Shown here piece by piece: positions 12 through 36,988 of a DNA stretch of 64,000 nucleotides (the first letter of the stretch is position 1; every line of letters starts with the position of its first letter). The stretch comes from a virus. Made by a program: the position numbers and the translations under genes. The stretch spans positions 4,538 to 68,537 of the IMG/VR virus record IMGVR_UViG_3300042691_016049; one strand, given 5' to 3'. The notes under the pieces are model-generated. The model saw nothing but the letters and a program-made list of their open reading frames with translations. It was not told the origin of the DNA and did no database searches.

Positions 12-3000
12 GTGGGTGTCGGGCTTGGCGCTGGCGCTGGTGCGATTGAACCCCGAACCCAACCAGCCACGAAAGAAGAAGTCGCCGCCGCAGCCGCTGA
101 AACTCAAGATGTGGCAAGGCAGAATAAAGATGTGGCTCCCGCTACCGCTTCCCTTGTTGAAGGCCAAGCAGAACAGATCGTCCAAACACAAGAAACCCCC
201 GAACAGCGAGTAGCCCGCCTCCAAGAAGAAGCTACCGCAGCAGCAGAGATTCCACTAGAAGAGCGCCCTCTAGAACAAATCACTCAAGAGGCACAAGCCC
301 GAATCGCCGAACGTCAAGGCATAGAACAATCCGAAGTAGAAGAACCTCAAGGAACTAGGGTTGAAGCGGCGGCATATAAAGCTCCCGATGGCACGGTGTT
401 TTACGGGCCTTCCCACTTGGAAGCCATGGCCCAAGCCCGCGATGCTGGAAAGATTGATCAGGCTGAGATTGATGCAAAACAAGAAACTACCTCACGCGAA
501 ACTCCTGAGTTTGGATATTCCACCGAAGCAGAAGGATTTGTTAGTCGGGATCAGGCCGAAGCGATTGCCCGCGAGTCTGAGCAGCTATTGGTAGAACAAC
601 CAGCTACAGGAAAGCTTCACAGTAATGAAGTGGCATTGGATGCTTTTATGCAACCAGAGCCAGTGGCTGAAGAGGCCCTAGTTGTCGAGGAGGCTATAGC
701 AGAAGCGCCCATTACTACAACCAGAACCATTGCAGACTCTATCCGAGATAAGGACACATTTATTTATAACGGAATGCGTGGCGCTATCAGCGTTGAAAAT
801 GATGTTACTGTTTTCCGCCCATTTGGAACTCAAGAAAGATACGAGGTTCCAGTTAATCCCAATCAGACCATAGATGAGATTGAGGGTATTGAGTGGGCAA
901 GGCGCGGGCAACGCAGAGAAGGGCGTGTTGAGCCGCAGCCAGAAATTGCATCGATTGTTGAATCAGCACCAATTGTTTCTCAGGAAGAGGTTGATGCCGA
1001 AGAATCGGAATTTGAAGTTCCAGCGGCATTGGTCGAGATTGAAAAATCTCAGACGCTCAACGATCTCGCAGATCTTTTTGACACTGGCGAATCGGTTGTT
1101 TCTCAGGAGGGCAAAAGGGAGACAAAAGTTTCTGAAACCACAGAATTTTATCGCCAAGTCAGGCCCGATCAAATTGATCAAGCCAATCGGCTTATTGACA
1201 ATGCCCTAAGAATCATCGACGCTTTACCCATATCCGAAGACCAAAAGGCGGCTATGGCAGATCCATTCCTCCTTTTGGATCAAGATATTTCAAATTATGA
1301 AAGCAACCCAGAATACCAACAATACAAAGCGTCAATCCGCACGGAGGTTCGCCCTGCTGGCGAAGCTGTCGCGATCCCCGAAACTGAAGCAGAAGTTGCA
1401 GCAGGCGTCAGGGAGCTTGAAGCAAGGTCAAGAGCAGAAGCAGTCCGCTTAGAGCGTGAGGCGCAAGCTCGCCGCGTTGCGGCTGGTCAGGCAGCATTTG
1501 TCCCAGCGCCGCAGATCGAATCTCTTTCTCGCGTAATCCGCGCTGAAGCGCAACCACAAGAGTTTGAGGCTCTTGTCGAACAGGGGCTTGCCGAGGAATA
1601 CAACGGCCAGCAGATTCTAACTCAAGCTGGATTTGACGCGCTGCCACAAGAGCAACGCCCCCGCCTGACACCCGAAGCCCGAAAGATCCAAATCGATACT
1701 GGAGCCAGCGAGGCAGCAGCAGAAGCTATTACCAAAGGTCTTCGCATTGGAGTGGATCAAGTTCCGCCGAACGTGCGTATGCCAGAAGGATGGACTCTTG
1801 ATGGAGACATTTACATACCCCCCGCCGCCCAAGCGGAAGCTGGTAGAGTTGCAAGAGATGAAGAATCAATTAAAGAAATCGCCACTCAATACGGAGTTGA
1901 TAACAGGCTTGCGACTTCTGTATTTAACAACCAAATAGTAGAAGTTCCTTCTGGAAGATGGAGTGGCCCATCCAATTGGGTTGTTGAACAATATGGTGAT
2001 AAATTTTACGCCATTCCTCCAACAACTATCAAGAATCGCCTTGCCGCGCAGGGAGAATTGCGTAGGCTTTCAATGCTTGAAAGAGCGGCACTTGCTGGTA
2101 TCTTGACCGAGCAAAGACTGCTTACCGAAACCGATGCGAAACAATACATCCAAGACGCCTCAAAACAGGGTTATAGCGCAGACGAGATTAGTGCCGCCTC
2201 CACCGCTGCAGAAGCAACGTGGAATGAACGATTCGGAGGCGATGGGAACACTCGTCAAGTTGCAGGAGAAGTATCGCCAGAAGTTGTCGATGTCGCAGCA
2301 GAAGAAGCCGAGCGGTCAAAGAGGCCAAAAGTAACTGGCGGCACAGCCCTTCCCGCTTCCAAGCTTTTTGGAATGACGGCGCGTGAGGCCCTGCAATATT
2401 TGGCCGATCAAAACCTTGGGGCCGCACAGACGGAGACAGAGGGTAGGCCGCTTAACCTTTCTCAGCAAATGCAAAGGGCGGCTTCTATATTGGCCAAGCT
2501 TCCTCTTCGCATATTGGACGCTGACTTTATTAAAAAGGCCAGAGGTAGCAATAGAGCCTATCGTGCCAACGAAGGATTTATCCGCTTTCCAGCAACTCGT
2601 CGCGGAAAAGAATACTTTGAAGCACCAGAAACATTGGTGCATGAAGTTGGGCATACTCTTACGGCTGATGCTATAAGAAAGTATGTGTTTGATCGCGCAT
2701 TCCGCAGGGCAAGTGGCGACCAATATTTAAAGGCTTTGGACAATGCTCTAGCAAATCCCAACACTCCTGAGCAAATTAAAAGACTCATAAATCTCTACAA
2801 GCAAACCATTGATGAACTTGGGATTACTCAGGAATATTTTGGTGCTGGAGGGCTTGCAGGCACTGATGCAACCATATCGCAGAAGAAGGCTTGGAATCGT
2901 AAAAAACCGCTAATAAACAAGTTTACTGGTAAAAAAATTGGATGGTATGAGCTGTATGGTTTGGCAAACTTAGATGAGTTTGTTGCACAAGCTTGGAGCG

Positions 3001-6000
3001 ATTTAGAGTTCCAAGACATGCTTAAAAATATCAAGGTTCAAAACAAGCCATCCATCTACGAGCGTTTTGTTCGCATCATTCGGGATCTATTTGGTTTTGA
3101 TAGCGACACGATGGCCGCAGCGGTCATTGATGCATCTTATGCTTTGGCAGAGTTGGAAGCCCCAGCCACTGGTGGAACTATTGAGCAGAGAATAGCCAGA
3201 ACAACGGAAGCTAGGGGCGGTGTTGCCCCTGAACAGCAGGGAGTTCAGCCCATGGCTCCAGTTGAAGAATATGCTCCAAGAACAGAAGAAGAACAAAAGG
3301 CATTTGATAAAGCGTCTTCTAATAGGGTATTGGCGCGTAATCCACAACTCGCGGTAGCCGCAGTCAGGATGAAAAATGGCGAGATCACTGCTGGACAGTA
3401 TGCTGATTTGGTAGATGCCATCGATCCATTTACTGCCAAGGGCGCAGACCCGATTCCAACTGATGGCAAAATTAAACAATACATTCAAAGTAATAAGGTT
3501 GGTAAAGTTGGACTAATTGATAAAGATGGAAATCAAAGACTTCAATCTGGTGAGCAGTATGAGTTCAGAATAGATATTCCTACTTATAATGAATCAACTA
3601 AGGCTGGAGATACCGTATATGCAATAACAGCGCATGAGGCGGTTCCAGAAACTAGTCGCCGTGTTGGAGAAACATTCGCATATATTGGTGTGGCCAAAGT
3701 TACAAACCCAACATTTATGACCAGAGCAATCTCTGGTAAGGGTTCTGCCGTAGAAATTGCTATTGGAAAAAATAAATTCCCGCTGGCTACTGTCAAAGGA
3801 AACTACGAGCCAATCACCGAACTTCCAGCCAATATTAATGACCCCAATGTTTGGACTGAGGTTGGATATAATCCAATTCGTTCCAGTTTCTTTGTGGATG
3901 TTCGCAGCAAAGATGCTGTGGTTGGTGGGTCTGAGGCCATCATGGTTGGTTCCCGTGTGTTTGTTAAAGATGCTGTGTTGGAACCTCGTCCGACTGGAGT
4001 CACCATGGGCGAGCTTTATGCTCCGCAAGAAGTTCCGCAAGAAATCCCTACATTCTCTGAGGGAAGCCCAGAAGCAGCGACTCTTTCTGCCATGGCAGCA
4101 TCAATGGCCAAGGTGGATGCGGCGTCCGAGGCCAAAGGCCCGACAACCTTGAAGATTAGCGAGATAGCCTCTATCTGGATGGATCAGGGTGGTGACGCTC
4201 GCCAGCTTCAAGATCTTATCACGCAAAACACAAACCTTACACCAGCCAATGCAAGGCGTGTGGCCAATGCTATTGAGCGCCAATACGATATCCAGCAGTC
4301 GATTGCTTCGGCGTTTATCGAAACTCAGACTGGTCTTTCTGTGGAAGCGTTACCAGAAGGCGTGACACTTCCCAAGGAGGTTGATCCTGATCGTCCGCGA
4401 CCCATCATGCAGCGCCTGTTCGACGTATTCATGGGAGTCAGGGTTCCGCCCGTGAAGATCACAGTCAATGAGAAGACCGCGCTTAATCAGCAGATTCGTC
4501 TCAAGGCAGCGGCTACCCGCGAGGCCAAGAAAGCCCAAAAAGAGACGGCTAATGAGGTTGTTGAGATCATTAAGGCCATGGAGCTTCGTGGCCCCGTTCG
4601 CCCGAAACAGGCCCAAGCCCTTGCCAAACGTGCGGCCAAAGTTATTTGGACTAGCGAAAAGTCTATCGAATCTTTCACCGATTATGCTGCCAAGGTTGTT
4701 GAAAACACCAACTATGATGCCGATCTTCGCGAAGCAAGAGACGCACAGAAACGAGCCAAAGCACTTTCAAAACAGAAAAAAGTCGCCCTTTCTCCGCAGC
4801 GTGAGGTCTTGGATGATATCAGCAAAATCGCGGTTAACCGAATCGAAGATCCGAGGATGTTTGCCGAGATGGTTAACTACTATTTGAGTGGATTCAAGGC
4901 TGTCCTATCTCCTGACTATGTGGTTGTTCCTGATTTAGAAATGCAGGGCTATCTTGCCAGCGTCAAAGACGAGGAAATTCAAAGCCAGCGCGAGCTTGAT
5001 CGCGCCGTCAACCTCCGCCTTGCCGAGAAATATGGGGTTGATCCCGAAGAAGTAAATGAAGTTTTAGCGGCATTCGATGTCATCAAAGAAATTGAAGCCA
5101 GCGAGAATCGCGAGGCTATCGACAATCTTCTAACCGAGAAAGCCATTGAAACACGCGATGGACTCAGGGCTTACGATCCGACTCCGCTTCGCGAAGATCA
5201 ACGCAGGGTGGTTGAAGCTATGGCCAAGGTCGATCCAGCCGCCTTGGACGCCGAAGAGCGTCAGCGTTTTATCCGTATTGCCAACAATGTGATCTTTAAC
5301 AATCAAACCAATGGCGCGGAATACTTTATGTCTGTAGCCAATGGGCAGCAGAATGCCCGCATGGCCGCACAGGATAGTGACATGGTCGCTCGCAACAAAG
5401 CTTGGGTAAATCTTCTTCCTGCCTTTGGATCTATCAAAGCCGAGAAGACCATGAAGGGATGGGCGCTTGAGCTTCAATCCGTTTCCGACACTTTCCGCAA
5501 TGCTTTCGGCCTCAAATCCATGGCCAAAATTTACAAGGCCATGGGAATGCTTGATCTCAATTCAAGTTTTGCACAGGCCAACAATACTGTTGATCAGATT
5601 CAGGAAGAGATGGCCGAGTTCCATAATGGCCTTGAAAAGAAATATGGCGCAGTTTCCCGCAATCAAGATGGTCTATTGGCAGAGGGTATTGTTGGATTCC
5701 TAATTCAACGTGTTCCAAAAAAAGACGAAGCAGACTCTATCGCGCAACGCCGAGATCTAATCAGGCAAGACATCGCCAACCGCCGTCAGTCTGGAGAGCT
5801 TGATCGAATTGCCATGGCAGATCGCATCGAAACGATCCTGAATCAGATCGATGGAACTTCAACGCAAGATATTTTGGATAAACTCAAGGAAGCTTATCGC
5901 CCTAACTATGATTCATTAATCTGGTACAAGGATACGCTCCTTCCTAAATACAAAGACTTCCTTAAAAACTTTGATGAGAACTTCAACGATCAGGCCAACA

Positions 6001-7757
6001 ACTACGATAACCCTGATTATCTTCCAATTGCTTTTACTTCTGTTGGGCCTTCGCTTGCCATCACTAAAGAAGAAGAACAAGTGTTCTATGATCAGGTCTC
6101 TCTCCGCCCGAAACAATCCGCCAACACTATCAAGCGGGTTGATTACGCTACACTTCCAAAAGACCGCACCACAGGAACGCCAAAAGAAATTGAATTTAAT
6201 CTTCGCCGCAACGCATTCAACAGTCTTTCTGACCAGATTAACAAGGCTTATACTTCTGGTGCTTGGCAGCAAATCGCTTCGTTTATGAAGACTCCTGAGT
6301 CCACTCAGGTTTTCGGTGGACAGGCAAACAAAGACTTCTTTGTGGATCGTCTCAATCGTTTGCGCCTTTCAAGAATGCGGCGTGGGGCCATGAGTCGCGG
6401 AGCATTTGAGAAAGCCGCCGATGCGGTAGGCGTGATCTCCCGCAAGCTTGGCACTGGCATTGCCTTGGGTGGCGTCTACCAATGGATCAAGCAGCCTCCT
6501 GATCAGCTTGTTACGGCTTGGGGTAGTGGTGCGCGTGGTGAAGTATTGGCCCGTAACATTGCTCCATCTAATCAGAAAGCAGCCCGAACCCTACTCAACA
6601 AATTCTCAATTGGACGGCGTGGTGACGCTTCTGCTGGTTATAAATATATCAACCAGATGGAGGGCCATCAAAACCGACTTGAACGCTACTTCTCCGAAAG
6701 CAAATGGGAACAGGCCAAAGAACAGGCTGGCAAGATTGCCGATGTTTGGATGTTTGGTCTAAAGAAATCTGATTTTATTGCGGCCTCCGCAGCTTGGATG
6801 ACTTACTACGAAACCGAGCTTAACAAGCGGAATATCCAGATCACCGACTGGAACCAAGAAGCTGAATTGATTGACGGCGATAACGACAGACAGGAAGCCG
6901 CAGCCTATGCCGAGCAGATGACTGATATTTATCAGGGATCTTCCGATCCTACTCAGATGGCTGTGTTTGCCCAAAGCGGAAAGTCTGGAGCCGAGAATCT
7001 TCTTAAAGCTATGTTTGTCCCCTTCAACTCGTTTGCCGTTCAGCAACGCATGAGGCTTTATTCCGATGTCCGAGACGTTTTGAGTGGAGACAAGCGTTCG
7101 CGTGGAGGGCTTGCTGGAACAATTGGTGGCCTCATTCTTTTCCATGCTACTAAGCGATATGTCCTTCCTGTTATTTCTGGATCAGCAATTGGCGTCCTCT
7201 ATAGCTTGATGGGTGTGGATGTCGAAGAGCTAGACGAGGAGAAGCAGAAGGAGCGGGCCAGCAAGAACTTCCGCCAGTTTCTTGCTGATGCGAGTTCCAA
7301 CTTGCTCGTTGGTGGCATGCCGCAAGTTATTGAATCTCAGCTTATTAAGGCTTTCAATTATGCCGCTTATCTCACTGCCATGCAGCTTGAGGACGAATCA
7401 GTAATGGGCGACGATGGAGAACTTATCTCATTTGATAAGTATCAAAAGGAGCGTTCGCCACTCTATCGTTATCAGACTTATGGTGGAGCCATGAGCCTTG
7501 GCATGTTGGAGATTGGTTTTGATCAGGCAAAACAAGTTGCCCTAAATACAAAGATGCTGGCATCTCCTGAAGAAATGGAGGCATTTACTCCTGAAGAAAA
7601 ACGACTTCTTTATTTCTCCGCGCTTTCCGATTGGCTCTATCTCATGCGCCTAAACGACACTGACTTTGCGCGTTTGGTGCAGAAGGCCCGCCGCGACATG
7701 ATCAAATCCGCCGAAGAGCGCGAGAAAGAACTGGCCCGAATCCGCGCTGGGCGCTAG
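12..7757 (+). CDS. Giant internal virion / ejectosome-like (large polyvalent-type) protein with zincin metallopeptidase motif; 5' end probably outside the window
   Basis: 2581 aa open from the window edge. Acidic Ala/Glu-rich N-terminus, HExxH (LVHEVGH) with a downstream 'LDEFVAQ' third-ligand motif, and a helical C-terminus typical of podovirus injection proteins. Confidence 0.7.
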   Translation: MGVGLGAGAGAIEPRTQPATKEEVAAAAAETQDVARQNKDVAPATASLVEGQAEQIVQTQETPEQRVARLQEEATAAAEIPLEERPLEQITQEAQARIAERQGIEQSEVEEPQGTRVEAAAYKAPDGTVFYGPSHLEAMAQARDAGKIDQAEIDAKQETTSRETPEFGYSTEAEGFVSRDQAEAIARESEQLLVEQPATGKLHSNEVALDAFMQPEPVAEEALVVEEAIAEAPITTTRTIADSIRDKDTFIYNGMRGAISVENDVTVFRPFGTQERYEVPVNPNQTIDEIEGIEWARRGQRREGRVEPQPEIASIVESAPIVSQEEVDAEESEFEVPAALVEIEKSQTLNDLADLFDTGESVVSQEGKRETKVSETTEFYRQVRPDQIDQANRLIDNALRIIDALPISEDQKAAMADPFLLLDQDISNYESNPEYQQYKASIRTEVRPAGEAVAIPETEAEVAAGVRELEARSRAEAVRLEREAQARRVAAGQAAFVPAPQIESLSRVIRAEAQPQEFEALVEQGLAEEYNGQQILTQAGFDALPQEQRPRLTPEARKIQIDTGASEAAAEAITKGLRIGVDQVPPNVRMPEGWTLDGDIYIPPAAQAEAGRVARDEESIKEIATQYGVDNRLATSVFNNQIVEVPSGRWSGPSNWVVEQYGDKFYAIPPTTIKNRLAAQGELRRLSMLERAALAGILTEQRLLTETDAKQYIQDASKQGYSADEISAASTAAEATWNERFGGDGNTRQVAGEVSPEVVDVAAEEAERSKRPKVTGGTALPASKLFGMTAREALQYLADQNLGAAQTETEGRPLNLSQQMQRAASILAKLPLRILDADFIKKARGSNRAYRANEGFIRFPATRRGKEYFEAPETLVHEVGHTLTADAIRKYVFDRAFRRASGDQYLKALDNALANPNTPEQIKRLINLYKQTIDELGITQEYFGAGGLAGTDATISQKKAWNRKKPLINKFTGKKIGWYELYGLANLDEFVAQAWSDLEFQDMLKNIKVQNKPSIYERFVRIIRDLFGFDSDTMAAAVIDASYALAELEAPATGGTIEQRIARTTEARGGVAPEQQGVQPMAPVEEYAPRTEEEQKAFDKASSNRVLARNPQLAVAAVRMKNGEITAGQYADLVDAIDPFTAKGADPIPTDGKIKQYIQSNKVGKVGLIDKDGNQRLQSGEQYEFRIDIPTYNESTKAGDTVYAITAHEAVPETSRRVGETFAYIGVAKVTNPTFMTRAISGKGSAVEIAIGKNKFPLATVKGNYEPITELPANINDPNVWTEVGYNPIRSSFFVDVRSKDAVVGGSEAIMVGSRVFVKDAVLEPRPTGVTMGELYAPQEVPQEIPTFSEGSPEAATLSAMAASMAKVDAASEAKGPTTLKISEIASIWMDQGGDARQLQDLITQNTNLTPANARRVANAIERQYDIQQSIASAFIETQTGLSVEALPEGVTLPKEVDPDRPRPIMQRLFDVFMGVRVPPVKITVNEKTALNQQIRLKAAATREAKKAQKETANEVVEIIKAMELRGPVRPKQAQALAKRAAKVIWTSEKSIESFTDYAAKVVENTNYDADLREARDAQKRAKALSKQKKVALSPQREVLDDISKIAVNRIEDPRMFAEMVNYYLSGFKAVLSPDYVVVPDLEMQGYLASVKDEEIQSQRELDRAVNLRLAEKYGVDPEEVNEVLAAFDVIKEIEASENREAIDNLLTEKAIETRDGLRAYDPTPLREDQRRVVEAMAKVDPAALDAEERQRFIRIANNVIFNNQTNGAEYFMSVANGQQNARMAAQDSDMVARNKAWVNLLPAFGSIKAEKTMKGWALELQSVSDTFRNAFGLKSMAKIYKAMGMLDLNSSFAQANNTVDQIQEEMAEFHNGLEKKYGAVSRNQDGLLAEGIVGFLIQRVPKKDEADSIAQRRDLIRQDIANRRQSGELDRIAMADRIETILNQIDGTSTQDILDKLKEAYRPNYDSLIWYKDTLLPKYKDFLKNFDENFNDQANNYDNPDYLPIAFTSVGPSLAITKEEEQVFYDQVSLRPKQSANTIKRVDYATLPKDRTTGTPKEIEFNLRRNAFNSLSDQINKAYTSGAWQQIASFMKTPESTQVFGGQANKDFFVDRLNRLRLSRMRRGAMSRGAFEKAADAVGVISRKLGTGIALGGVYQWIKQPPDQLVTAWGSGARGEVLARNIAPSNQKAARTLLNKFSIGRRGDASAGYKYINQMEGHQNRLERYFSESKWEQAKEQAGKIADVWMFGLKKSDFIAASAAWMTYYETELNKRNIQITDWNQEAELIDGDNDRQEAAAYAEQMTDIYQGSSDPTQMAVFAQSGKSGAENLLKAMFVPFNSFAVQQRMRLYSDVRDVLSGDKRSRGGLAGTIGGLILFHATKRYVLPVISGSAIGVLYSLMGVDVEELDEEKQKERASKNFRQFLADASSNLLVGGMPQVIESQLIKAFNYAAYLTAMQLEDESVMGDDGELISFDKYQKERSPLYRYQTYGGAMSLGMLEIGFDQAKQVALNTKMLASPEEMEAFTPEEKRLLYFSALSDWLYLMRLNDTDFARLVQKARRDMIKSAEEREKELARIRAGR

Positions 7758-9467: not shown

Positions 9468-10777
9468 GTCAGTAGCATTTTAAATATTCTTTCATTCCAT
9501 TTTGAGGCTGGACGATCCATGGAATCTGTCCAGCTTGATGGGTGGTCTTCATGGTAAAGAATTTTTTCATTCGGGATTTCGGCAGGATAGCGGTCTTCGA
9601 TCAGGTTGTCCATCGTGGAAACCCAACCGAATTGTCGCCTAATCCAAGCGGCTACAGCCAAATCAAACCAAGGAGAAGCCACGGCACAGTCAGGGAAATT
9701 ATAGATTCGGTCTGCCAACCAGTCCCAACGAAAGGCGAATAGCTCCCTGCCTATGTGGGCGGGATCTCGCCTCACCCCGACAGCCCCGAACCTACGGCAA
9801 TGTTCGACTACCTTATGGAGGTTGATGATTTGAACATCGTCATTAGTCCAGACAATGATGTCCCGATGTCTGGTGAACTTCAAAGCCTTGGCCAGCATCT
9901 CCTTCAACATAGGTAGCGGACGCCGATCCCCGATATTATTGGCAGTCCGATGAATATTCTCTGCTGTGAGCATATGGTCGAAGTGGGATTTTTGGTTCTT
10001 AAAAGCCTCTCTGTGGCGTTTTTCCTGCCCGAATCGATCCACAATCGCCCAGACTTCGCCTATTGGAACCAGTGTTTTCTCAACCTCGTCACAGATCTGA
10101 TCCACGTTGTAGTCATGATATCGGAAGGTGGAGGTAGCGGTAACTGGAGGTGGACTGCCCCGCCATCCGTCATTAATTAAGGCAATCGTTGGACACTTGG
10201 CGGCATTAGCCAACCACAGGTGAAGGGTATCGATAGTGACCAGACAGGAGGCCGCATCTAAAACACCTAATAAATCAAATGGCTTTTCTGCTTGGATGGT
10301 GGACAGGTCTACGATCTTGTATTTGGGGAATCTTGCTTTGAGTCCGCGAATCAAATGCGCCCCGTGCAAGAGCGGAGAGCTTATCCCATGGGTGGCCACG
10401 GCAATGAATGGGCCGTCAGGAATTAACCTCGCTTCTCTCTGGAAATCACGCCGATCAAAGACATAGGGATGTTTGCGCCACTGATCCCGAAATCCTCCCA
10501 AACGATAGCTTTCTAAGGCATAATTCTTTTCCTGTTTGGTTTCTTTGGGATGCATGAAGACCTGTGCAACCCGCAGATCTGGCAATCCTTGGCAAAGCCC
10601 GATGCAATGCTGTAACTCTACAGGGTCTCCGCTATACTTCTTAGTCTGGCAGTAGCTTGTCCCATCAAAGATCGAAGAGTATTTCTCCGATGTTACAAAG
10701 GTAGTTCCCTTGTTGGCATAAGCCACGGGCAAGAGATTAATATGGTCTCCGAGTCTTCCAAGATTCAGGATGGTCAT
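9464..10777 (-). CDS. GT9 (heptosyltransferase-like) glycosyltransferase fused to a second GT-A-like domain
   Basis: N-terminal 'RLGDHINLLP', 'LVTIDTLHLWLANAAKCPTIAL', and C-terminal 'IIVWTNDDV'. Confidence 0.7.
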   Translation of the reverse strand: MTILNLGRLGDHINLLPVAYANKGTTFVTSEKYSSIFDGTSYCQTKKYSGDPVELQHCIGLCQGLPDLRVAQVFMHPKETKQEKNYALESYRLGGFRDQWRKHPYVFDRRDFQREARLIPDGPFIAVATHGISSPLLHGAHLIRGLKARFPKYKIVDLSTIQAEKPFDLLGVLDAASCLVTIDTLHLWLANAAKCPTIALINDGWRGSPPPVTATSTFRYHDYNVDQICDEVEKTLVPIGEVWAIVDRFGQEKRHREAFKNQKSHFDHMLTAENIHRTANNIGDRRPLPMLKEMLAKALKFTRHRDIIVWTNDDVQIINLHKVVEHCRRFGAVGVRRDPAHIGRELFAFRWDWLADRIYNFPDCAVASPWFDLAVAAWIRRQFGWVSTMDNLIEDRYPAEIPNEKILYHEDHPSSWTDSMDRPASKWNERIFKMLLT

Positions 10778-12354
10778 AGCTTTTTAAGCGTATCCAGAAG
10801 GGGCAACAGGTCAACCATGGAGGTGCGGCGTTTGATCTCGGTTTCCAACATGGACTTGTATATACTATGTATATCCAGACCAGCTATATCCTCACAGGAT
10901 ATGCCGCTAACCGCCGCTTCAACTGACCCATCCAACTGTGAAATGACTTTTGCTATGGACGATAGATTACCCGCCTTATAGTCCGAGTCCATGATGGTTT
11001 TGATGTCTTCGTCCGACAACAAATTCCAATTATAATTTGATGCGATGTCCTTACCGCACAATAAAAGATGGGCTACCAATTGTTTCCAAGCCTCGCCCTT
11101 CTGTTCTCCGTAGCGGGTTTCGGTGGGCAGGGCTATGTGTCCTCCTCCCATTGCCGCCTGTTTCTTTAACTGGGAAGGCTTGATGCCGAGCAGCTTCGCA
11201 CACCGATTGGCCAATTCGTCCCGCTCAATCCCATCTTCCAAGACAGACAGGGCTTGCCCGACCTTACCCATTGCAATCTGTTTATCCTCAATTGAATTTT
11301 TATCCAGTGATTCTGCCAATGCTTCTGGGTAGATCTTGGCATTTGAGATCAGACTCGCAATGTCTCCGCCCGAAACCAAGAAGGAATCGGGATCTCCATC
11401 TGCCAGCATAACAGCCCTAACCCTGACACCAAGGCTTGCCAGCCCCGCAAATGCCTTAAATGACGCCTCTCGCCCCGCTTTATCCCCGTCGAACACCAAG
11501 ACAGCCTCTTTGCACAGGCGACGAATGATGGCCCCATGAGTGGCGGTAAATCCCGTTCCAAGTGGAGCAACGGCATTGGTAATACCGCTCAAGTGGCATC
11601 TGATAGCATCAATCTGCCCCTCAACAATGATCACTTGCCCCGAATCGATGATGGATCGTTTGGCTTTGTCCAGTCCGTAGAGAAGCTTTCCTTTGTGAAA
11701 TAGCGGGGATTCGGGGGAGTTAAGATACTTGGCAGGATGGTTATCAATGGTGCGTCCGCTGAATCCAACCAGAGTCCCCGCCTCATCCGCTATCCCGAAC
11801 ATAATACGATTGGAAAAACGCAGCGTCCCATTATCGTAGGTTAACCCCGACAGGGTATGATGATTGGCACTACCAGACAGGGCATAGCTCTTTGGCGCGA
11901 ATCCGATCTTCCATTCCTCGCAGATCTCTTTATTGAATCCACGTTCCTTGAGAATCTTTCGAGCTTCAGCCCCTTCCTTAGTTAAAAGCAAACTGAAAAA
12001 TTGTTGGTTAGCCTTATAGACAACAGATACCAAGCCCCTTCGTAGCTTATCGGCCTCACTCTCCTGTTCCTCTATGGCTATCCCCGCTTTGGCTCCAAGT
12101 TTGCGGACAGCTTCGGGGAAGTTGATCTTGTCCATTTCCATGACAAAGCGGAAGACCGACCCTCCAGCCCCGCATCCAAAACATTTATAGTTTCCCTTGT
12201 CATCATTGATAAAGAATGATGGAGTCTTCTCCCGATGGAATGGACAGAGCGCAACGAATCGTCCGCCCCTCTTTTTTACAGGGAAGTAATCCCCTGCTAC
12301 TTCAGAGAGACGGACGTTTGCCGCTATCGAAGCAATGGTCGTTTCAGAGATCAA
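10774..12354 (-). CDS. dnaG: DnaG-type DNA primase (CHC2 zinc finger + TOPRIM)
   Basis: 'CPFHREKTPSF..CFGCG', 'KYLNSPE', 'VEGQID', 'FDGDKAG' and 'DPD'. Confidence 0.95.
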   Translation of the reverse strand: MISETTIASIAANVRLSEVAGDYFPVKKRGGRFVALCPFHREKTPSFFINDDKGNYKCFGCGAGGSVFRFVMEMDKINFPEAVRKLGAKAGIAIEEQESEADKLRRGLVSVVYKANQQFFSLLLTKEGAEARKILKERGFNKEICEEWKIGFAPKSYALSGSANHHTLSGLTYDNGTLRFSNRIMFGIADEAGTLVGFSGRTIDNHPAKYLNSPESPLFHKGKLLYGLDKAKRSIIDSGQVIIVEGQIDAIRCHLSGITNAVAPLGTGFTATHGAIIRRLCKEAVLVFDGDKAGREASFKAFAGLASLGVRVRAVMLADGDPDSFLVSGGDIASLISNAKIYPEALAESLDKNSIEDKQIAMGKVGQALSVLEDGIERDELANRCAKLLGIKPSQLKKQAAMGGGHIALPTETRYGEQKGEAWKQLVAHLLLCGKDIASNYNWNLLSDEDIKTIMDSDYKAGNLSSIAKVISQLDGSVEAAVSGISCEDIAGLDIHSIYKSMLETEIKRRTSMVDLLPLLDTLKKL

Positions 12355-26958: not shown

Positions 26959-27288
26959 TCATTTGATGATTCCTTCTTGGCGGGCAATGGCCTCAATCTG
27001 GCTCACATACTCGCGGGTACAATTGAATACTTCGGCAACGGCGGTGAAGTTGGTTTCGGGGTTGTTCATAATGAAACCCAGAATCTTGAACGCCCTTCCC
27101 CCGTTGGACAGACGCCTCTTGGTGGTCTTCTTGCGCCTCGCCCGAATGCCAGTCCGCTTCAACGCCGAAGCCATGGCATGGTAGCTTGATCCGTGTTTTA
27201 CGGCCAGTTCACCAATGGTGATTTCGGGGTTTTCCTGAATTTCAGTAGGTAGAGTAGATGTGTTGATCATATAATTATGTATTGACAT
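26959..27288 (-). CDS. HTH DNA-binding protein (sigma region-4-like C-terminus)
   Basis: 'TIGELAVKHG' and 'FTAVAEVFNCTREYVSQIE'. Confidence 0.7.
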   Translation of the reverse strand: MSIHNYMINTSTLPTEIQENPEITIGELAVKHGSSYHAMASALKRTGIRARRKKTTKRRLSNGGRAFKILGFIMNNPETNFTAVAEVFNCTREYVSQIEAIARQEGIIK

Positions 27289-27322
27289 TACACAGTAGCT
27301 GGGCTTTAATCGCCGTCAAATA

Positions 27323-27607
27323 TTAATATTTAGGGGGCGTTGGAACTTTCCGTTTCCGCGCCTTTCGCGGTTTACGGGCTTTCCTCTGCTCCCTGTGGAA
27401 CAATTTGTGGCACACCTTACAGAGGCAGATCAGATCGTCTAGGTGATTAAGTTCGTCTCCTTGGTGTTCGTAGGTTCGGTGGTGGGCCTGAAGTTCTAGG
27501 GGGCTATTGCATACCCCACATCTCCACCCGAATCGCTTCTTCACAAGTCGGCTTACTTCCCGCCAGTAGGGGGTCAGCAAGTAAACTTTGTAGGATTCTT
27601 TATCCAC
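27323..27607 (-). CDS. Small HNH endonuclease
   Basis: 'YL.TPYW..CGVC..LQAHHRTY..DLICLCKVCH'. Confidence 0.8.
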   Translation of the reverse strand: MDKESYKVYLLTPYWREVSRLVKKRFGWRCGVCNSPLELQAHHRTYEHQGDELNHLDDLICLCKVCHKLFHREQRKARKPRKARKRKVPTPPKY

Positions 27608-27659
27608 AGAAAGATATTACTCTCTTGTTGACTCTGTGCAACTCCAGTGTATTCTATGC

Positions 27660-27740
27660 ACTTCCTTGCATCTGGGTGCGGTTCCTTGCGCTGTCATGAC
27701 GTTGACTTTGTTTCGGGGCCGCACCCTCTTTCTTTCTTGA
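27660..27740 (+). ncRNA. Candidate small RNA: 12-bp stem, 29-nt loop, pyrimidine tail
   Basis: Promoter TTGACT-16-TATTCT at 27628-27655; stem 27674-27685/27715-27726. Confidence 0.5.
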
Positions 27741-27759
27741 CTCTTGTTTGAACATTTCG

Positions 27760-28212
27760 TAGGGTCGCGCTGTCAACGTCGAGTGACAGCGTAAAGTGGG
27801 CGCGACATACGCCACTAAAACCTGTGACCCTAGGTATGCAAGGATCAAACCGCCGAACGCTCAGGTCAGCCATCCGTCCCATAGCTTGAACACATTGCGG
27901 CGTGGGAATCCAGAGAAACTCTGGTAAGCGCGAGGGATAATACCCTCGGAGGTCGATTGCGGTTGTTTGAAGGTCTAATAGCGGCTTCGGAGCCTAGACC
28001 GTGATCTGTGGAATAAAGCGGAGGACTCACTCATAGGAATGAGAATCCAATCTTTTGACTACTGCCTTTGCCCCTGCGGGGGCGAGGTGTAGTCAATCGG
28101 TCGGATCTAGCTCAAGGAATTATTAATCCAATGACGGCGGCGATTCGGGGTTAAACGAAACGGAGCCGCAATGATAGGCGGGCGCACGGCTTTAGCCCGC
28201 CGAATACCCCCA
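27760..28212 (+). ncRNA. Candidate large structured ncRNA (~450 nt)
   Basis: No plus-strand ORF >60 aa; at least seven stem-loops visible by eye. Confidence 0.55.
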
Positions 28213-28279
28213 AAGAAAAAAGAAGAAAAAACATTGAACGCCCCGAAGGGGCTGTGGTCTATGTATCTATGGATACTTC

Positions 28280-28424
28280 GGAGAGGATCATTGAGGGCAA
28301 CACTGCGAATGCGGGGTTGAGCGACCTGAGTCCTCTCCCAATTTTTGGAGGTGGGGAGACCCGCATGCAAATGCGAAAGCTTCAAAGGCTGGGGGGCTAA
28401 TGAGGTTGCGCCACCCCGCCTCCA
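28280..28424 (+). ncRNA. Two tandem closed-stem RNAs, each ending in CCA before a T-run
   Basis: GGAGAGGA/TCCTCTCC (28280-28340) and GGAGGTGGGG/CCCCGCCTCC (28347-28424). Confidence 0.45.
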
Positions 28425-28433
28425 ATCTTTTTT

Positions 28434-28712
28434 ATGAAAAAACTACTACTACTGGCATTAGTCACTAGCGTTCAGGCCCAAGATGGTTCGTTTAATGGAA
28501 CCATCTATGATTTGGATTCGGGGAGGATACAGGTCATAAGTGGGTCTGTGGATATTAAGCCAAAAGAAGACACATACTTGGAAACGCTTCGCCGCATCAA
28601 TGCGGAGTTGGCCGAATCAAACGCCCGTATTAGTGCGGAGATTGCCGCAAGTAACCAACTTTCTGAGTTGCAAGAGCAGACCCGCCTTCTTCGCAAAATT
28701 GCCGACCAATGA
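28434..28712 (+). CDS. Secreted protein with Sec signal peptide
   Basis: MKKLLLLALVTSVQA|QD, then a coiled coil. Confidence 0.65.
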   Translation: MKKLLLLALVTSVQAQDGSFNGTIYDLDSGRIQVISGSVDIKPKEDTYLETLRRINAELAESNARISAEIAASNQLSELQEQTRLLRKIADQ

Positions 28713-30346
28713 GCAACTATCTGAACGTCAATATCCCCACCTTCTTTGCTTTCGTAGACGAGGGGTTTTTCTACGATCTGGAGCCAGAGGTGTCTCGCTC
28801 AAGACAATTGGTAGAAGTCTTTGCTTTTACTTCTATTCCCCAACGTTGCGGGATGTTCAGCGTGATGACCGAATACGGAAGCCAGCATGCCAGAGTCCCG
28901 ATCCATTACCTCCATACCGATGAAACTGGAGGCACATTTTACCCGCTGGACTGGATACAACTCTGGGACTCCATGAGCTACTATTGCTCAGTCAATATCT
29001 TGGATTACTGCAAAAACAGGGCGGCAAACATCATGCTTAAAAACAAAAGCTTTGAGGAAGCCAAGTATATGTTCACGCTAGATTGGTGTTTGGGGCCGCA
29101 ATATACATCTGGATACGGCGAGATGGCGGCTGGTCACAAGTGCTTTGGCGAGGACACAATGATTCTTTGCAAAGATGGGCTTTACCCAATTAAAGAAGTT
29201 GAGGTTGGGGATTATGTTTGGACACACAAAGGTAGATGGAAGCGTGTGGCCGCTATTCATAAAAGAGTTGGCGATTCGGTTTCCGTGAAAGCTGCTGGAA
29301 TTGCCAACTTTATAACAACAAAAGAACATAAAATTTTAACAACACTAGGATGGGAGCAAGTTCAAAATGCAGGATGCGTGACTCTTGCATCGCCGCAATT
29401 ACCTCTTAGTCGCCCCATTGATTGTCCTCTAGAAATCAATGGAGATTTCATGCGGTTTCTTGGGAGGTGGGTTGGCGATGGTTGTATTAATTACTCGCAA
29501 AAATCGGGAAGACCAAAGGGAGAGTTGGTCAACAGAATCATTGTTTCTTGTAATGCTCAAGAGGAAGAATCTCTTGAAAAAGACATTGATTTGTTTTTCA
29601 AAACAAAAACGCGCCAACAGGTTTCTGGAAACTGCTATAATTATTACATGGAAAACAAACAATTGGCTGAATGGATTTCAGACAATTTTGGTAGATACTC
29701 TTGGGCAAAAAGAATTCCAAACTGGATTTATTCTTTAGACAAAAGCCTGATTGAGGATTTCATCTATGGATATTTTCTTTCTGACGGTTCTATAACAAAA
29801 GACACCAATGAAAGATCAATAACCAGTGTTTCTAAAAAACTTGCTATTGGAGTAGCGATGCTTCTTCGGGTTTGTGGATATTATCCCAAAATCTATTATC
29901 GCGACAGAGATAACGATTTATGCAAAATTCACAAAACCACCTACAAGTGTAAGCCGAGATATTCCGTAAGGTGGATGATTGACAAAAAACAAAATACCTT
30001 CACAAAATATGCTGATGGTAGAATTACTTCTAAGATAAAATCTTTAGAAGATTTTGGCACCGCCCTTCTTTATGATCTTTCAGTTGAGGACGATCACTCG
30101 TACATTGCAGATGGCGTGATAGCGCACAACTGTGGTCATGTATTTGCGGGTAATGGGCAATACTTCATCCAGCCCAACAATCGCGTGTTATGGATGGATG
30201 GAGGATCGTTTATTGCCAAGAAGTTTCCGCAAAAGCCCGACTGGAAAGTATTCAGCCAAGAGTTTAGTTGTGAACACACTGGGAGCCGTTGGGTCAGTGA
30301 AAGCGAGGAGGAGCTATGGTTTTACGACTTCAAAGAGCAGGGATAG
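28709..30346 (+). CDS. Conserved phage hypothetical protein (~215 aa extein) containing an intein
   Basis: Extein 'YLNVNIP..QLWD..YMFTLDW..GHK|CGHV..GQYFIQPNNRV'. Confidence 0.85.
   Translation: MSNYLNVNIPTFFAFVDEGFFYDLEPEVSRSRQLVEVFAFTSIPQRCGMFSVMTEYGSQHARVPIHYLHTDETGGTFYPLDWIQLWDSMSYYCSVNILDYCKNRAANIMLKNKSFEEAKYMFTLDWCLGPQYTSGYGEMAAGHKCFGEDTMILCKDGLYPIKEVEVGDYVWTHKGRWKRVAAIHKRVGDSVSVKAAGIANFITTKEHKILTTLGWEQVQNAGCVTLASPQLPLSRPIDCPLEINGDFMRFLGRWVGDGCINYSQKSGRPKGELVNRIIVSCNAQEEESLEKDIDLFFKTKTRQQVSGNCYNYYMENKQLAEWISDNFGRYSWAKRIPNWIYSLDKSLIEDFIYGYFLSDGSITKDTNERSITSVSKKLAIGVAMLLRVCGYYPKIYYRDRDNDLCKIHKTTYKCKPRYSVRWMIDKKQNTFTKYADGRITSKIKSLEDFGTALLYDLSVEDDHSYIADGVIAHNCGHVFAGNGQYFIQPNNRVLWMDGGSFIAKKFPQKPDWKVFSQEFSCEHTGSRWVSESEEELWFYDFKEQG
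29141..30130 (+). mobile_element. Intein (330 aa) with LAGLIDADG homing endonuclease
   Basis: N-terminal CFGEDTMI, block B 'TKEHKI', 'FLGRWVGDG', 'FIYGYFLSDG', C-terminal 'YDLSVEDDHSYIADGVIAHN', +1 Cys. Confidence 0.93.
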
Positions 30347-32473: not shown

Positions 32474-33778
32474 ATGCACGAAGTCATTCACGAACCCTCG
32501 GCTGAAACTGCAATCCTTTCCTGCCTCTGCCATGCGCCGACAGAGGATCAACGCGAGATCCTTCTATCAATTAAGGAAGATCATTTCTACCTACAGGAGA
32601 ATAAGATCATCTTTCGGGCGATCATGCGGGCTATCGCCAAGGGGATGCAAGCCGACATCATAAATGTTAAGTCGGAAATCGAAGCGGCCAACGAATACGA
32701 TATCATTGGTGGTGAACAGAAGATTGCAGAAGTGGCAACTTCGTGTGTAGCCCACAACAACTGGAAGCGTTACTATCCGAAGCTGGAAGAAGCCCGATAC
32801 AGAAGGTCGTTGGAATACTTGGCCAATGACATGGTTCACAAGGCCAGAGACCGCGAACTAAAGGTCGAGGAACTCAAGAACTGGTCGGAAACCACGGTAA
32901 TGCGAGCCGATTATGAGATTGATGACGGAAACAAGCTCTCCATTGTCAACGCCCTAGACCGCGCTGCCCAGAATATTGAATCAACGATTGCTGGGAAGCC
33001 CTGTGTCGGCATCCGTACTGGATTGACTCCAGTAGATGATTTGCTGATTTTTGGAATGCGTGGAGGAGACATGGTTGTGGTTGCTGCCCGTCCAGCAGTC
33101 GGAAAGACATCCAGCGCCATGCAGATTGCAGAGCATGTGGCTCTTAATGAACAAAAACGAGTGTTGGTATTCTCTTTGGAGATGACCAGCGTTGCCCTGA
33201 TGGAGCGTCTTATCCGCTCCCGTGCGCGTGTGCGAGCCGCAGACATTCTCGCGAGGACGGTAACCCCGCAACAAAAGAAAGCCTTGGCACAGGCCACAAC
33301 AGAGATCCAGCAGTCCAAGATTCTGTGTGACGATAGCTCCGCCAAATCAATTGGCTACCTAAAGGCCGTTGCTCGTCGCGCCCATCAGCGGGAACCGCTC
33401 GATCTCATCATTATCGATTATCTTCAGCTTGTCAGGGGAGATAGTCGGCGTGGAAAAGAAAATCGCGTGTGCGAGGTGGAAGAGATTAGTGGCGGCATCA
33501 AGGATCTTGCAAAGACACTTAAGGTTCCAGTTCTTGTTTTGGCCCAACTTAATCGTGACCCCGACAAGCGCGGAGGACGCCCAAGCTTGGCCGATCTTAA
33601 GGGATCAAGTGCAATTGAGATGGATGCGGACATTGTAATCATGCTCCACAGCGAAGAGGCTGCTGATCATGGCCAAAATCCCACCATGGAATTCATTGTG
33701 GCAAAGCATCGTGAAGGCCCGACAGGTGTGGCCAACATGATATTCAACAAGGCGATTACCCGATTTGAGGCGGCTTAG
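32474..33778 (+). CDS. dnaB: DnaB-like replicative helicase
   Basis: 'AARPAVGKT', 'FSLEM', 'IIDYLQL', 'LAQLNR', 'IEMDAD' and 'KHREGPTG'. Confidence 0.96.
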   Translation: MHEVIHEPSAETAILSCLCHAPTEDQREILLSIKEDHFYLQENKIIFRAIMRAIAKGMQADIINVKSEIEAANEYDIIGGEQKIAEVATSCVAHNNWKRYYPKLEEARYRRSLEYLANDMVHKARDRELKVEELKNWSETTVMRADYEIDDGNKLSIVNALDRAAQNIESTIAGKPCVGIRTGLTPVDDLLIFGMRGGDMVVVAARPAVGKTSSAMQIAEHVALNEQKRVLVFSLEMTSVALMERLIRSRARVRAADILARTVTPQQKKALAQATTEIQQSKILCDDSSAKSIGYLKAVARRAHQREPLDLIIIDYLQLVRGDSRRGKENRVCEVEEISGGIKDLAKTLKVPVLVLAQLNRDPDKRGGRPSLADLKGSSAIEMDADIVIMLHSEEAADHGQNPTMEFIVAKHREGPTGVANMIFNKAITRFEAA

Positions 33779-35146: not shown

Positions 35147-36988
35147 ATGGCAACAGTTGATCAGGGGATAGAAAAATACGGAAGGCTATGGCTACCCAAG
35201 GATGGACAAGCTATTACACCAATTCGTATTGAAATGGATGCATTCTTGCAGGGGCTAACACCAGAAGAGGGTGGACTTGGCAAGGCTCGTCATTATCGCA
35301 ATATTGTTTCAGCTATCTGGCCTACCTTTCAATGGCATCGATGGGCGGAACTTAGCGCACAGGCATTTTGCACAAATACCTATGAGGTGGACGAGGCGAC
35401 TGGCAACCGATTTGTCCGAAGCGTAACAGGTCTGGCTGGTGGTACGGATTCTGGTAAATCCTATGGGATGGCGGCATTTGCCTTGGTTAACTGGTTTTGT
35501 GATCCAATTAATACGATGTGTATTGTGGTATCTACGTCCAAGATTGACGCCAAGCAGCGTATCTGGGCGGCATTGGTCAAGATGTATCGCGAAGCCCGAA
35601 ACATGGGATTGGCCTCTGGAAGGCTTATTGAGTCCATGGACATCATCAAGCTTTCTGATGAAGAGGGGGCTGTTATCGATCCCGAAACTGGCGTGAGTGA
35701 TGCATCATCAATCATGCTTCTTGCGGCTGGCGACGAATACAAAGATGATGCCCAAAAACGACTTCAGGGTAAGAAAAATCGTCGTATTGTGTTGATAATA
35801 GACGAGTTACAAGACTGCTCGGCTTCCGTAATTAACGAGGCGGTATGGGGGTTTAAGGGCGCACAAGAACTCTACATTGTTGGCGCTGGCAACCCATCAT
35901 CCATCTTCGACCCCCACGGGAAGTTCTGCGAACCCATCAAGGGGTGGATGAGCGTGGACGAGCAAACCCCAAACTGGAAGATACGAGTGGCTGGTATTGA
36001 GGGGGTATGCATCAGGTTTGATTCAGAAAACGACAACCCCAACCAACAATCCTTCGATGCTGGCAAAGGACTCCGCTACCCATTCCTACCCAAGCCCAAC
36101 GATGTAACATTGGCCAAGAAGGAACTTGGAGAACTTAACCCACAGTATTGGAGAAAATTTCGGGGCTTCTGGCCTCCCGCAGATGCCGATGACTCCACGA
36201 TTGTATCAGATATCTTGCTGGCCCGTCACGGGGCACTTGAAAAACCAATATGGGACGGAACCCCGAAAGATATAGCAGGGATTGATCCCAGCTACACCGA
36301 AGGTGGAGACCGTTTCGTCTTTACCCACATGAAGTATGGGAAGCTGATAAGTGGGAAATGGGCGATAGCAGTAGAGAAACAGTATGTTCTCAACAGAAGG
36401 GCTGGATCTCAGGAAGACTTTCAATATGAGATGATCCAGCAAATTCACGATCTTTCGGTCAAATTGGGAATACCAAATCAATGGATGGGGGTTGATGCTT
36501 CGGCGGGTGGTATCTTTTGGTCTATTGGAGAGCGAGAACTCCTAAAGGGTTGGCATGCAGTAAGTTTTGCAGGGGCGGCGTCTGATTTACCCGTTAGCGC
36601 CCAATACGCCATGAGGAATGAGGTCACGGGAAAACCCCAAGTCGGCAAGGAATTGTTCCACAACATGGCCTCGGAACTCTGTTTTGCTGCCCGATACTTC
36701 CTAGAATGCGAACAACTCAAAGGAATTACCCCCGATCTTGCATGGGAAATGACTCAAAGAAAGTATGTACGAAGGACTCGGAAGATTATTATTGAGTCCA
36801 AGACAGACATGAAGAAGCGAATCGGGAAATCGCCTGACTTATTCGACTCATTTGCAGTAGGACTTTTTGTGGCCCGTAAAGTATTTGGGGCGATGGCGGG
36901 TAGTGAAGCGATTGAGGAAAAGAAACGGCTCAACAAGGAGACGTTTAAAAAACTCAAACAAGCCTTGACTATAAAGAAGAATTGGTAG
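35147..36988 (+). CDS. terL: Terminase large subunit
   Basis: Walker A 'GGTDSGKS', Walker B 'LIIDE', 'GNP', nuclease 'GIDPS..GGD' and 'KSPDLFDS'. Confidence 0.92.
   Translation: MATVDQGIEKYGRLWLPKDGQAITPIRIEMDAFLQGLTPEEGGLGKARHYRNIVSAIWPTFQWHRWAELSAQAFCTNTYEVDEATGNRFVRSVTGLAGGTDSGKSYGMAAFALVNWFCDPINTMCIVVSTSKIDAKQRIWAALVKMYREARNMGLASGRLIESMDIIKLSDEEGAVIDPETGVSDASSIMLLAAGDEYKDDAQKRLQGKKNRRIVLIIDELQDCSASVINEAVWGFKGAQELYIVGAGNPSSIFDPHGKFCEPIKGWMSVDEQTPNWKIRVAGIEGVCIRFDSENDNPNQQSFDAGKGLRYPFLPKPNDVTLAKKELGELNPQYWRKFRGFWPPADADDSTIVSDILLARHGALEKPIWDGTPKDIAGIDPSYTEGGDRFVFTHMKYGKLISGKWAIAVEKQYVLNRRAGSQEDFQYEMIQQIHDLSVKLGIPNQWMGVDASAGGIFWSIGERELLKGWHAVSFAGAASDLPVSAQYAMRNEVTGKPQVGKELFHNMASELCFAARYFLECEQLKGITPDLAWEMTQRKYVRRTRKIIIESKTDMKKRIGKSPDLFDSFAVGLFVARKVFGAMAGSEAIEEKKRLNKETFKKLKQALTIKKNW

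Follow-up and report, generated by a model that had tools for sequence, protein, structure and literature searches.

We describe here two neighbouring RNA elements of an uncultivated freshwater phage, in which the loop of a hairpin is complementary to the 5' stem-loop of a large structured RNA encoded just downstream on the same strand. The window, by which we mean the whole 64,000-nucleotide (nt) stretch that was analysed, covers bases 4538-68537 of the IMG/VR record IMGVR_UViG_3300042691_016049, which is 68,537 bases long, carries direct terminal repeats and is rated complete. The match between loop and target is neither a product of chance nor a recent duplication, and it is under selection: among related phages both partners have been rewritten repeatedly, and they have been rewritten together. 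We think it reasonably probable that the hairpin belongs to a free-standing or released small RNA, whose terminator loop recognises the neighbouring large RNA at its 5' stem-loop, and that this pairing exists in at least eight specificity types.

In the window, the arms GGGTGCGGTTCC (27674-85) and GGGGCCGCACCC (27715-26) form 12 base pairs (bp), two of them G·U, giving a hairpin of -29.7 kcal/mol. An earlier note on this DNA had pointed out this stem, its loop and the pyrimidine run that follows, along with some 19 bp of complementarity, broken by a small bulge, between the loop and positions 27772-27794; all of these elements are present, and the complementarity amounts to 20 bp (11 + 9) around a 1x3 internal loop. 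A repeat finder independently listed the stem core (I24), both halves of the loop-target match (I7, 27686-96 with 27784-94, 11 nt and 91%, the sole 'mismatch' being a G·U pair; and I12, 27698-706 with 27772-80, 9 nt and 100%) and the target's own arm (I25, 27768-75 with 27784-91). When loop and target are paired by RNAduplex, 24 pairs form at -34.7 kcal/mol, a value reached by none of 200 shuffled loops (-12.7 +/- 3.2 kcal/mol), and folding of 27660-27800 yields both hairpins (-52 kcal/mol, z -3.36). The target is the loop's best site on either strand of the window, its own antisense aside, and stands about 4 kcal/mol ahead of the next-best site at -30.6 kcal/mol, over a background of -13.2 +/- 3.7 kcal/mol (8528 scanned segments); that second site, at 7644-7670 on the minus strand, was rejected as part of the background tail. 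The excess within this single sequence is moderate; the decisive evidence comes from the relatives.

Related loci were collected from viral contigs by way of the neighbouring 545-amino-acid (aa) protein, which gave 80 loci, and a scan for an invariant 23-mer of the large RNA contributed 45 further stretches, many of them on contigs already found. In all, 79 instances of the motif were found, 41 of them distinct; the 39 distinct instances with at least 170 nt upstream were aligned, and 32 of these 39 loci possess the hairpin, with 24 distinct loop/target combinations. Throughout the alignment there is hardly any variation in the stem, the U-rich tail or the flanks; the letters of loop and target are replaced by very different ones, with the new loop matching the new target in every case. 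Over the 24 combinations the mean duplex energy is -32.9 kcal/mol for cognate partners, -20.3 kcal/mol for non-cognate partners and about -13 kcal/mol for shuffled loops, and for each combination (24/24) none of 200 shuffles matched the observed energy. The cognate target ranks first for 13 of the 24 loops and within the top five for every one of them; where ties arise, they involve near variants within one type. When combinations are joined by single linkage at swap penalties of <6 kcal/mol, eight clusters result, and exchanging partners between clusters costs 8.1-27.0 kcal/mol (mean 15.3). Three sequence types of the spacer of the upstream promoter, P1, are seen in all combinations with different loop types when read from the alignments; recombination at this scale is thus frequent, and the match between loop and target survives it.

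Counting individual pairs leads to the same picture. When the pairs of the window's structure are counted on an alignment of 28 of 29 distinct stretches (the contig of the omitted one breaks off within the stretch), standard pairs fill 92.9% of cells as against 78.0% in shuffles (0/500 as high), and 136 cells are changed on both sides as against 48.5 (again 0/500), though the relatives share descent, such that these counts are not independent events and the shuffle figures overstate independence. Unaffected by shared descent are the eight unrelated sets of letters and a slid control, in which moving the 3' partner by 1-3 columns leaves 39-50% of cells paired. For the three helices between loop and target, paired cells amount to 88-90%, and 16 of their 20 pairs have double-sided changes, namely 10 of 11 in the helices of segment A (helices 2 and 3) and 6 of 9 in that of segment B (helix 4); the stem is paired in 99.7% of cells (28 sequences), and two of its pairs are double-changed, from U-A to C-G and from C-G to G-C. 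The earlier note had looked to homologs for compensatory changes between loop and target, and had reasoned that a recent inverted duplication would lose its complementarity there; compensatory changes are what the homologs contain, cognate partners surpass non-cognate ones, and the complementarity is kept.

The wobble pairs confirm the strand and bear on the kind of molecule. G·U pairs make up 69 of 555 pairs in the cognate duplexes of the plus strand as against 18 of 480 when the minus strand is folded, 18 of 24 combinations form a stronger duplex on the plus strand than on the minus strand, and every non-Watson-Crick pair of the stem is a G·U on the plus strand. This bias argues for pairing between RNA segments, and not for a protein-binding DNA site. 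Covariation, cognate preference and the plus-strand wobbles together lend strong support to a functional RNA pairing between loop and target, as the earlier note had envisaged; they fit both of the options that it had set out, action in trans and action in cis.

As for the small RNA itself, the GC-rich stem runs directly into a U-rich tail, both in the window and in 24/24 distinct relatives, where hairpin energies range between -27.6 and -32.6 kcal/mol and the 12 letters that follow include 8-11 T. Apart from the length of the loop, this is the anatomy of an intrinsic terminator. Upstream, P1 is the sole promoter-like site listed by a promoter scan of 27200-28800 and points toward the hairpin, and its -35 (TTGACx) and -10 (TAxxxT) boxes are kept in relatives across the three types of spacer sequence. 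Promoter, short leader, hairpin and tail together predict a small RNA of about 75 nt, the parts of which are listed in Table 1.

The downstream partner is a real structured RNA and appears to represent an undescribed class. Against shuffles, the fold of 27766 to ~28205 has z-scores of -4.68 (plus strand) and -6.18 (minus strand), and RNAalifold, applied to 29 of 37 distinct sequences (eight with large insertions being omitted), returned 44 pairs, 22 of them with compensatory changes; the helices are separated by long invariant unpaired motifs. No reading frame is conserved in 27766-28230: frames are broken by insertions and deletions that are not multiples of three, and the only plus-strand open reading frame (ORF) after the target (27796-27927, 43 aa) loses its frame in relatives to a 2-nt insertion or deletion. 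Rfam 15 (4227 models) has no gathering-score match in the window or in 10 related loci, and relaxing the threshold to E values up to 10 over 27250-28500 brought up three chance-level matches to unrelated families. The phage GenBank collection contains no DNA match to 27300-28500. Bacterial and archaeal genomes hold three matches to the invariant 23-mer, each over just 24-37 nt and one in an apparent coding stretch, where by our own arithmetic about four would be expected by chance for its 19 fixed bases; they offer no pointer to a host. A literature search, the reach of which stopped short of supplementary catalogues, returned no description of the RNA pair or of the large RNA; PMC10690425, a catalogue of candidate structured RNAs in viruses and phages, may include this region.

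Some further observations concern the large RNA. Its length varies between ~400 and 700 nt in relatives, and it was found only in freshwater-type viral contigs. The hairpin CCAGAGAAACTCTGG (27910-27925) marks a site of variable expansion, at which six relatives (L010, L013, L016, L022, L040 and L042) have insertions of ~65 to 100 nt instead. A helix between TAGGGTC (27760-66) and GACCCTA (27825-31), predicted by folding, is not kept in relatives and was discarded.

Between the hairpin and the target lies a second sigma-70-like site, P2, which was read by eye and is absent from the promoter-scan listing of 27200-28800; its boxes (TTGACT or TTGCAx, with TAGnnT or TATnnT) persist in the majority of relatives, and also in the majority of those without the hairpin. 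Overlapping P2 is a second arrangement that is invariant in the alignments (27747-27775), namely TTTGAAC in the P2 spacer (27747-53) and GTC 18 nt later. It recurs as TTGAAC-N17-GTCTAT at 28234-62, ahead of a third RNA, and a phage-wide search for TTGAAC-N16-18-GTCTNT gave 28234-62 as its sole match; TTTGAAC by itself is not enriched in the window (14 occurrences, 15.2 expected). We take the TTGAAC ... GTC motif to resemble promoters of extracytoplasmic function (ECF) sigma factors (GAAC ... GTC/TCT), and it may serve these RNA genes as a dedicated promoter.

The earlier note further proposed that the target is shared by two mutually exclusive pairings, one with the loop and one with its own arm. 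In the window both are real, the target's own hairpin having an energy of -14.5 kcal/mol, which none of 200 shuffles equalled. The relatives stop short of establishing a switch: in the window's register the local hairpin is paired in 54.5% of cells and covaries weakly (as against 88-90% for loop and target), and a 5' hairpin of some kind, found in most types, is only moderately better than shuffles, with a mean z of -2.05 over 26 distinct target segments. Loci without the small hairpin mostly have weak 5' hairpins in the target (-3 to -9 kcal/mol), with L107 (-13.3 kcal/mol) as the exception. The long-range pairing is thus better conserved than the local one, which suits a trans regulator and a fixed pseudoknot equally. 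A second contact may involve the leader, whose positions 27663-71 form a 9-nt complement to 27836-44 in the invariant motif (repeat I11). Compared with shuffled leaders, this complementarity reaches p<0.05 in 15 of 24 combinations, in two registers; among the other nine, three close relatives give p 0.06-0.11 and the remaining six rows comprise all the more distant types. The motif is invariant, so that no covariation signal can arise from it, and the TTGCAT core shared by the leaders may simply be inherited.

Synthesising these observations, we propose a model for how the two RNAs might engage one another. The small RNA would start at P1 and end at its own intrinsic terminator, formed by the hairpin and U tail, and the 29-nt loop would be its working part, with the 5'-most ~25 nt of the large RNA as its partner; the large RNA would begin ~40 nt downstream. 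We suggest that the 3' half of the loop (B) might first contact the apical loop of the 5' hairpin in the target (B'), and that the pairing would go on to invade the hairpin's 3' arm (A with A') and open it. The resulting duplex of ~20 bp may mask or remodel the 5' end of the large RNA, and could in this way set its stability or activity. Loop and target change their letters together while the nearby DNA recombines freely, and the pairing therefore has the character of a private specificity determinant, akin to those of immunity and incompatibility RNAs.

A number of observations weigh against this model, and several of them favour a single transcript. A loop of 29 nt is unusual for an intrinsic terminator, in which loops are short (3-8 nt), and a terminator scan confined to loops of that size does not list the hairpin. 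The -10 box of P2 (TAGGGT, 27760-65) would place the start of the large RNA at ~27771-73, within the 5' arm of the target's own hairpin; a start at ~27772 would put B' and A' at the very 5' end, and if TTGAAC-N17-xGTC were a different promoter with a later start, B' could fall outside the large RNA. In 7 of the 39 distinct loci the large RNA is accompanied neither by the hairpin nor by any hidden upstream complement, so the small RNA is not needed for the large RNA as such. RNAcofold, a check put forward in the earlier note, was applied to the small RNA together with 130 nt of the large RNA, and gave at least 15 intermolecular pairs in 12 of 24 combinations and fewer in the rest; nested folding cannot represent a loop-loop complex, and we do not use this uneven outcome as evidence. 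Transcript data are ambiguous. The stretch, or part of it, occurs in 24 runs, three of which are RNA libraries with small shares, and the contigs of these libraries carry parts of the large RNA along with flanking genes at similar depth, with neither strand nor ends shown. They include a 201-nt contig from an oligo-dT library (99% alike over 27922-28099), a 679-nt contig spanning the region in a relative, and a 400-nt contig from a DNase-treated library that covers 27663-28051, albeit with a substituted variable part, and which fits either read-through transcription, favouring action in cis, or carried-over DNA. The gap in coverage at 27657-27707 in run X23 carries no weight, and the contigs as a whole neither prove transcription nor separate cis from trans. 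Were P1 to be read through, an RNA of ~540 nt would result in which loop and downstream segment form a long-range pseudoknot, either as a fixed part of a 5' domain or as a folding switch, and we regard this as possible, if on balance doubtful. The greater conservation of the loop-target pairing over the local hairpin is as a constitutive structural helix would show, the bridging contig and the poor terminator that a 29-nt loop would make point the same way, and the leader's complement at 27836-44 could close such a domain. A structural helix needs no U-rich run, however, and one is kept after the GC-rich stem (-28 to -32 kcal/mol) in 24/24 relatives; a promoter-like site lies between the partners and must serve the 7 loci at which the large RNA is present and the hairpin is not; and the bridging contig has a depth of 2.6, from libraries whose contigs cannot exclude DNA. 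A leaky terminator would yield both forms, and the two readings are therefore not exclusive.

That the repeats act as DNA, either as operators or iterons for a dimeric protein around P2 or, at a replication origin among these replication genes, as a hairpin of single-stranded DNA, we consider improbable. The region does lie between divergent gene blocks, with the gene for a winged-helix DNA-binding protein beside it and a DnaB-type helicase gene 4.7 kb away; the repeats overlap a promoter-like site, and close by (27600-08) stands TTATCCACA, which we take to be the letters of the consensus DnaA box. The excess of plus-strand wobbles is unexpected for a double-stranded protein site, though that bias alone would be compatible with a single-stranded hairpin of the plus strand. 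Nor does the neighbouring winged-helix protein co-vary with the type of repeat: its divergence and the pairing type are correlated at a Spearman coefficient of -0.16 (171 pairs, 19 loci), identical proteins accompany pairs with a swap penalty of +15.7 kcal/mol, and proteins only 70-75% identical accompany the same pairing type. The repeats are, moreover, wholly different between near-identical flanks, and a matching change of protein would be required each time. Chance, or a recent inverted duplication devoid of function, is scarcely credible; the target is just 4 kcal/mol better than the best background site of the window, and 28 inverted repeats of at least 8 nt lie within 1.2 kb, but matched changes in eight clusters of relatives, together with the cognate energies and the pair count, refute this explanation.

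Table 1. Features of the RNA region and of its surroundings (positions in the window)
Feature	Position	Strand	Details
Promoter P1	27628-27655	+	sigma-70-like; TTGACT, 16-nt spacer, TATTCT; predicted start ~27661-27663
Predicted small RNA	27662-27738	+	~75 nt; 12-nt leader, 53-nt hairpin, U-rich tail; ends predicted from P1 and from hairpin and tail
Leader segment TCCTTGCAT	27663-71	+	
Hairpin	27674-27726	+	12-bp GC-rich stem (27674-85/27715-26), 29-nt loop (27686-27714)
Loop segment A, TTGCGCTGTCA	27686-27696	+	pairs with A' (27784-27794)
Loop segment B, GACGTTGAC	27698-27706	+	pairs with B' (27772-27780)
U-rich tail TCTTTCTTTCTT	27727-27738	+	9 T of 12; read as intrinsic-terminator run
Putative promoter P2	27737-27765	+	sigma-70-like; TTGACT, 17-nt spacer, TAGGGT
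Large structured non-coding RNA	27766-28205	+	~440 nt; predicted ends
Target (5' stem-loop of large RNA)	27767-27794	+	own arms 27767-75 and 27784-92; B' 27772-80, A' 27784-94
Invariant motif AGGTATGCAAGGAT.AAACCGCCG	27832-27856		in large RNA
3' hairpin of large RNA	28177-83/28195-201		
Winged-helix DNA-binding protein gene	26959-27288		beside RNA region
HNH endonuclease gene	27323-27607	-	94 aa; one flank of 830-nt gap
TTATCCACA	27600-08		overlaps start of HNH gene
92-aa ORF	28434-28712	+	other flank of gap
Intein-bearing ORF	28709-30346	+	545 aa; after 92-aa ORF
DnaG-type primase	10774-12354		
DnaB-type helicase	32474-33778		
Large terminase	35147-36988		

The RNA genes occupy an 830-nt stretch that contains no credible protein gene (Table 1), in a window that also encodes tail proteins, a holin and an endolysin. 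An ORF that extends from near the window start (12-7757, 2581 aa), examined as an N4-like marker, has no PDB, Pfam or PHROG match. On the side of the HNH gene, a weak minus-strand promoter may be read by eye (TTGCAC, 16-nt spacer, TAATAT, from 27641 down to 27614), which the promoter scan did not list; this putative site stands back to back with P1 and would yield an almost leaderless HNH mRNA. On the opposite side, the 545-aa ORF consists of a small host protein interrupted by an intein. The Hint and LAGLIDADG domains of the intein span roughly residues 145-478, and the N-terminal part of the host protein matches PHROG 3704.

A third RNA unit is found at 28234-28433, where the conserved TTGAAC-N17-GTCTAT motif (28234-62) is followed by a structured segment. 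A long hairpin (28345-56/28414-25) and a T run close this segment, immediately ahead of the 92-aa ORF's ATG. Its body downstream of the motif varies among relatives. ARAGORN calls a tRNA-Met at the corresponding position of one relative (L045:3005-3079), and in L064 and others a tRNA-like piece may be read by eye, with a 7-bp acceptor-type stem, a G·U at the third pair and the end ...CCACCA, for which neither ARAGORN nor Rfam makes a call. In five relatives (L004, L009, L027, L031 and L041) the cassette equivalent to 27608-28225, comprising the small and large RNAs, is replaced upstream of the homologs of the 92-aa ORF by a minus-strand ORF and by different non-coding DNA in which long inverted repeats are nested; the third RNA unit is present in them too.

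Antisense control with private specificity is a textbook property of plasmids and of phages P1, P7 and P4, in which the two partners come either from opposing strands of a single DNA or from within a single mRNA operon. The pair described here resembles c4 of phage P1, CI of phage P4 and RNA I/II of ColE1 in logic only, and is a member of none of these families. The c4 antisense RNA, reportedly described by Citron and Schuster in 1990, is said to lie upstream of its target on the same strand and to pair through short loop segments, and related phages differ there by matched changes, each with its own specificity. The present hairpin likewise precedes its target on the plus strand (27674-27726 and 27772-27794), and pairs through two segments, of 11 and 9 nt, in a phage-specific manner (eight clusters). 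According to PMC8198154, c4 is an antisense RNA of the c4-icd-ant operon (immI) of phages P1 and P7 and acts on sequences of its own operon. The small RNA described here differs in having an apparent promoter and terminator of its own, where c4 is cut out of an operon transcript by RNase P; in pairing through the very loop of its terminator hairpin; and in being directed at the 5' end of a large non-coding RNA, where c4 targets the ribosome-binding region of a protein gene. Here no ribosome-binding site of a downstream protein gene is available to be masked, the 43-aa ORF being broken, and the covariance model of the C4 antisense RNA family, to which both c4 of P1/P7 and CI of P4 belong, has no Rfam match in the window or, at the relaxed threshold, in 27250-28500. 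The CI RNA of P4 is described in PMC4825925 as being made by processing and as pairing with seqA and seqC of its own transcript, which leads to premature termination. Common to both cases is an untranslated RNA that pairs with nearby same-strand sequences of the same transcription region, and (in our case, putatively) controls the RNA made there; CI acts at two sites, however, whereas we see one bipartite target with no evident terminator after it.

In the copy-number control of ColE1, the short RNA I binds the extreme 5' region of the long folded RNA II through loop contacts that spread into a duplex, and specificity variants of RNA I define compatibility groups. Short RNA, loop contacts, a target in the 5' region of a long folded RNA (here ~440 nt, with 22 covarying pairs) and specificity variants are all shared with our system. 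RNA I is transcribed from the opposite, overlapping strand, such that complementarity is automatic, whereas both partners here are on the plus strand, 65 nt apart, and each matched change needs two mutations. RNA II primes replication; for the large RNA, a link of that kind is hinted at only by its neighbourhood, in which helicase and primase genes of the DnaB and DnaG types are found (Table 1). In type I toxin-antitoxin systems of the tisB/istR kind, a small RNA adjoins a target RNA that encodes a toxic peptide; we rejected this candidate on the grounds that 27766-28230 holds no conserved reading frame. Terminator loops of small RNAs can drive regulation, as PMC11979758 describes for SdsR, RseX and ArrS, with the case of fepA appearing under a heading that reads 'likely without base-pairing'. 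These RNAs, and LhrC, share with the present one the use of the terminator hairpin's loop as the functional surface, and differ in being host RNAs with mRNA targets and short loops.

What would be new in the present case is the use of two separate RNA genes on the same strand, whose ~20 bp of complementarity have been kept through many double changes, and an antisense-type control in which the controlled molecule is itself a large, conserved and unclassified RNA. The relatives supply a natural set of at least eight orthogonal RNA-RNA pairs on near-identical scaffolds, and an example of an intrinsic-terminator loop that would serve as a long recognition surface. The pairing also offers a handle on the function of the large phage RNA, in that its putative regulator marks which part of it matters. 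More tentatively still, and on balance not expecting it to hold, we speculate that this is a lock and key made of RNA only. With it, a lytic freshwater phage would control a large ornate RNA of a new class; the small RNA would act as the specific antagonist or licensing factor of that RNA, and conflict among co-infecting relatives would drive rapid change in the matched letters. If true, this would be an incompatibility or superinfection system composed of two same-strand RNA genes, in which the controlled object is a non-coding RNA and not an mRNA or a replicon primer.

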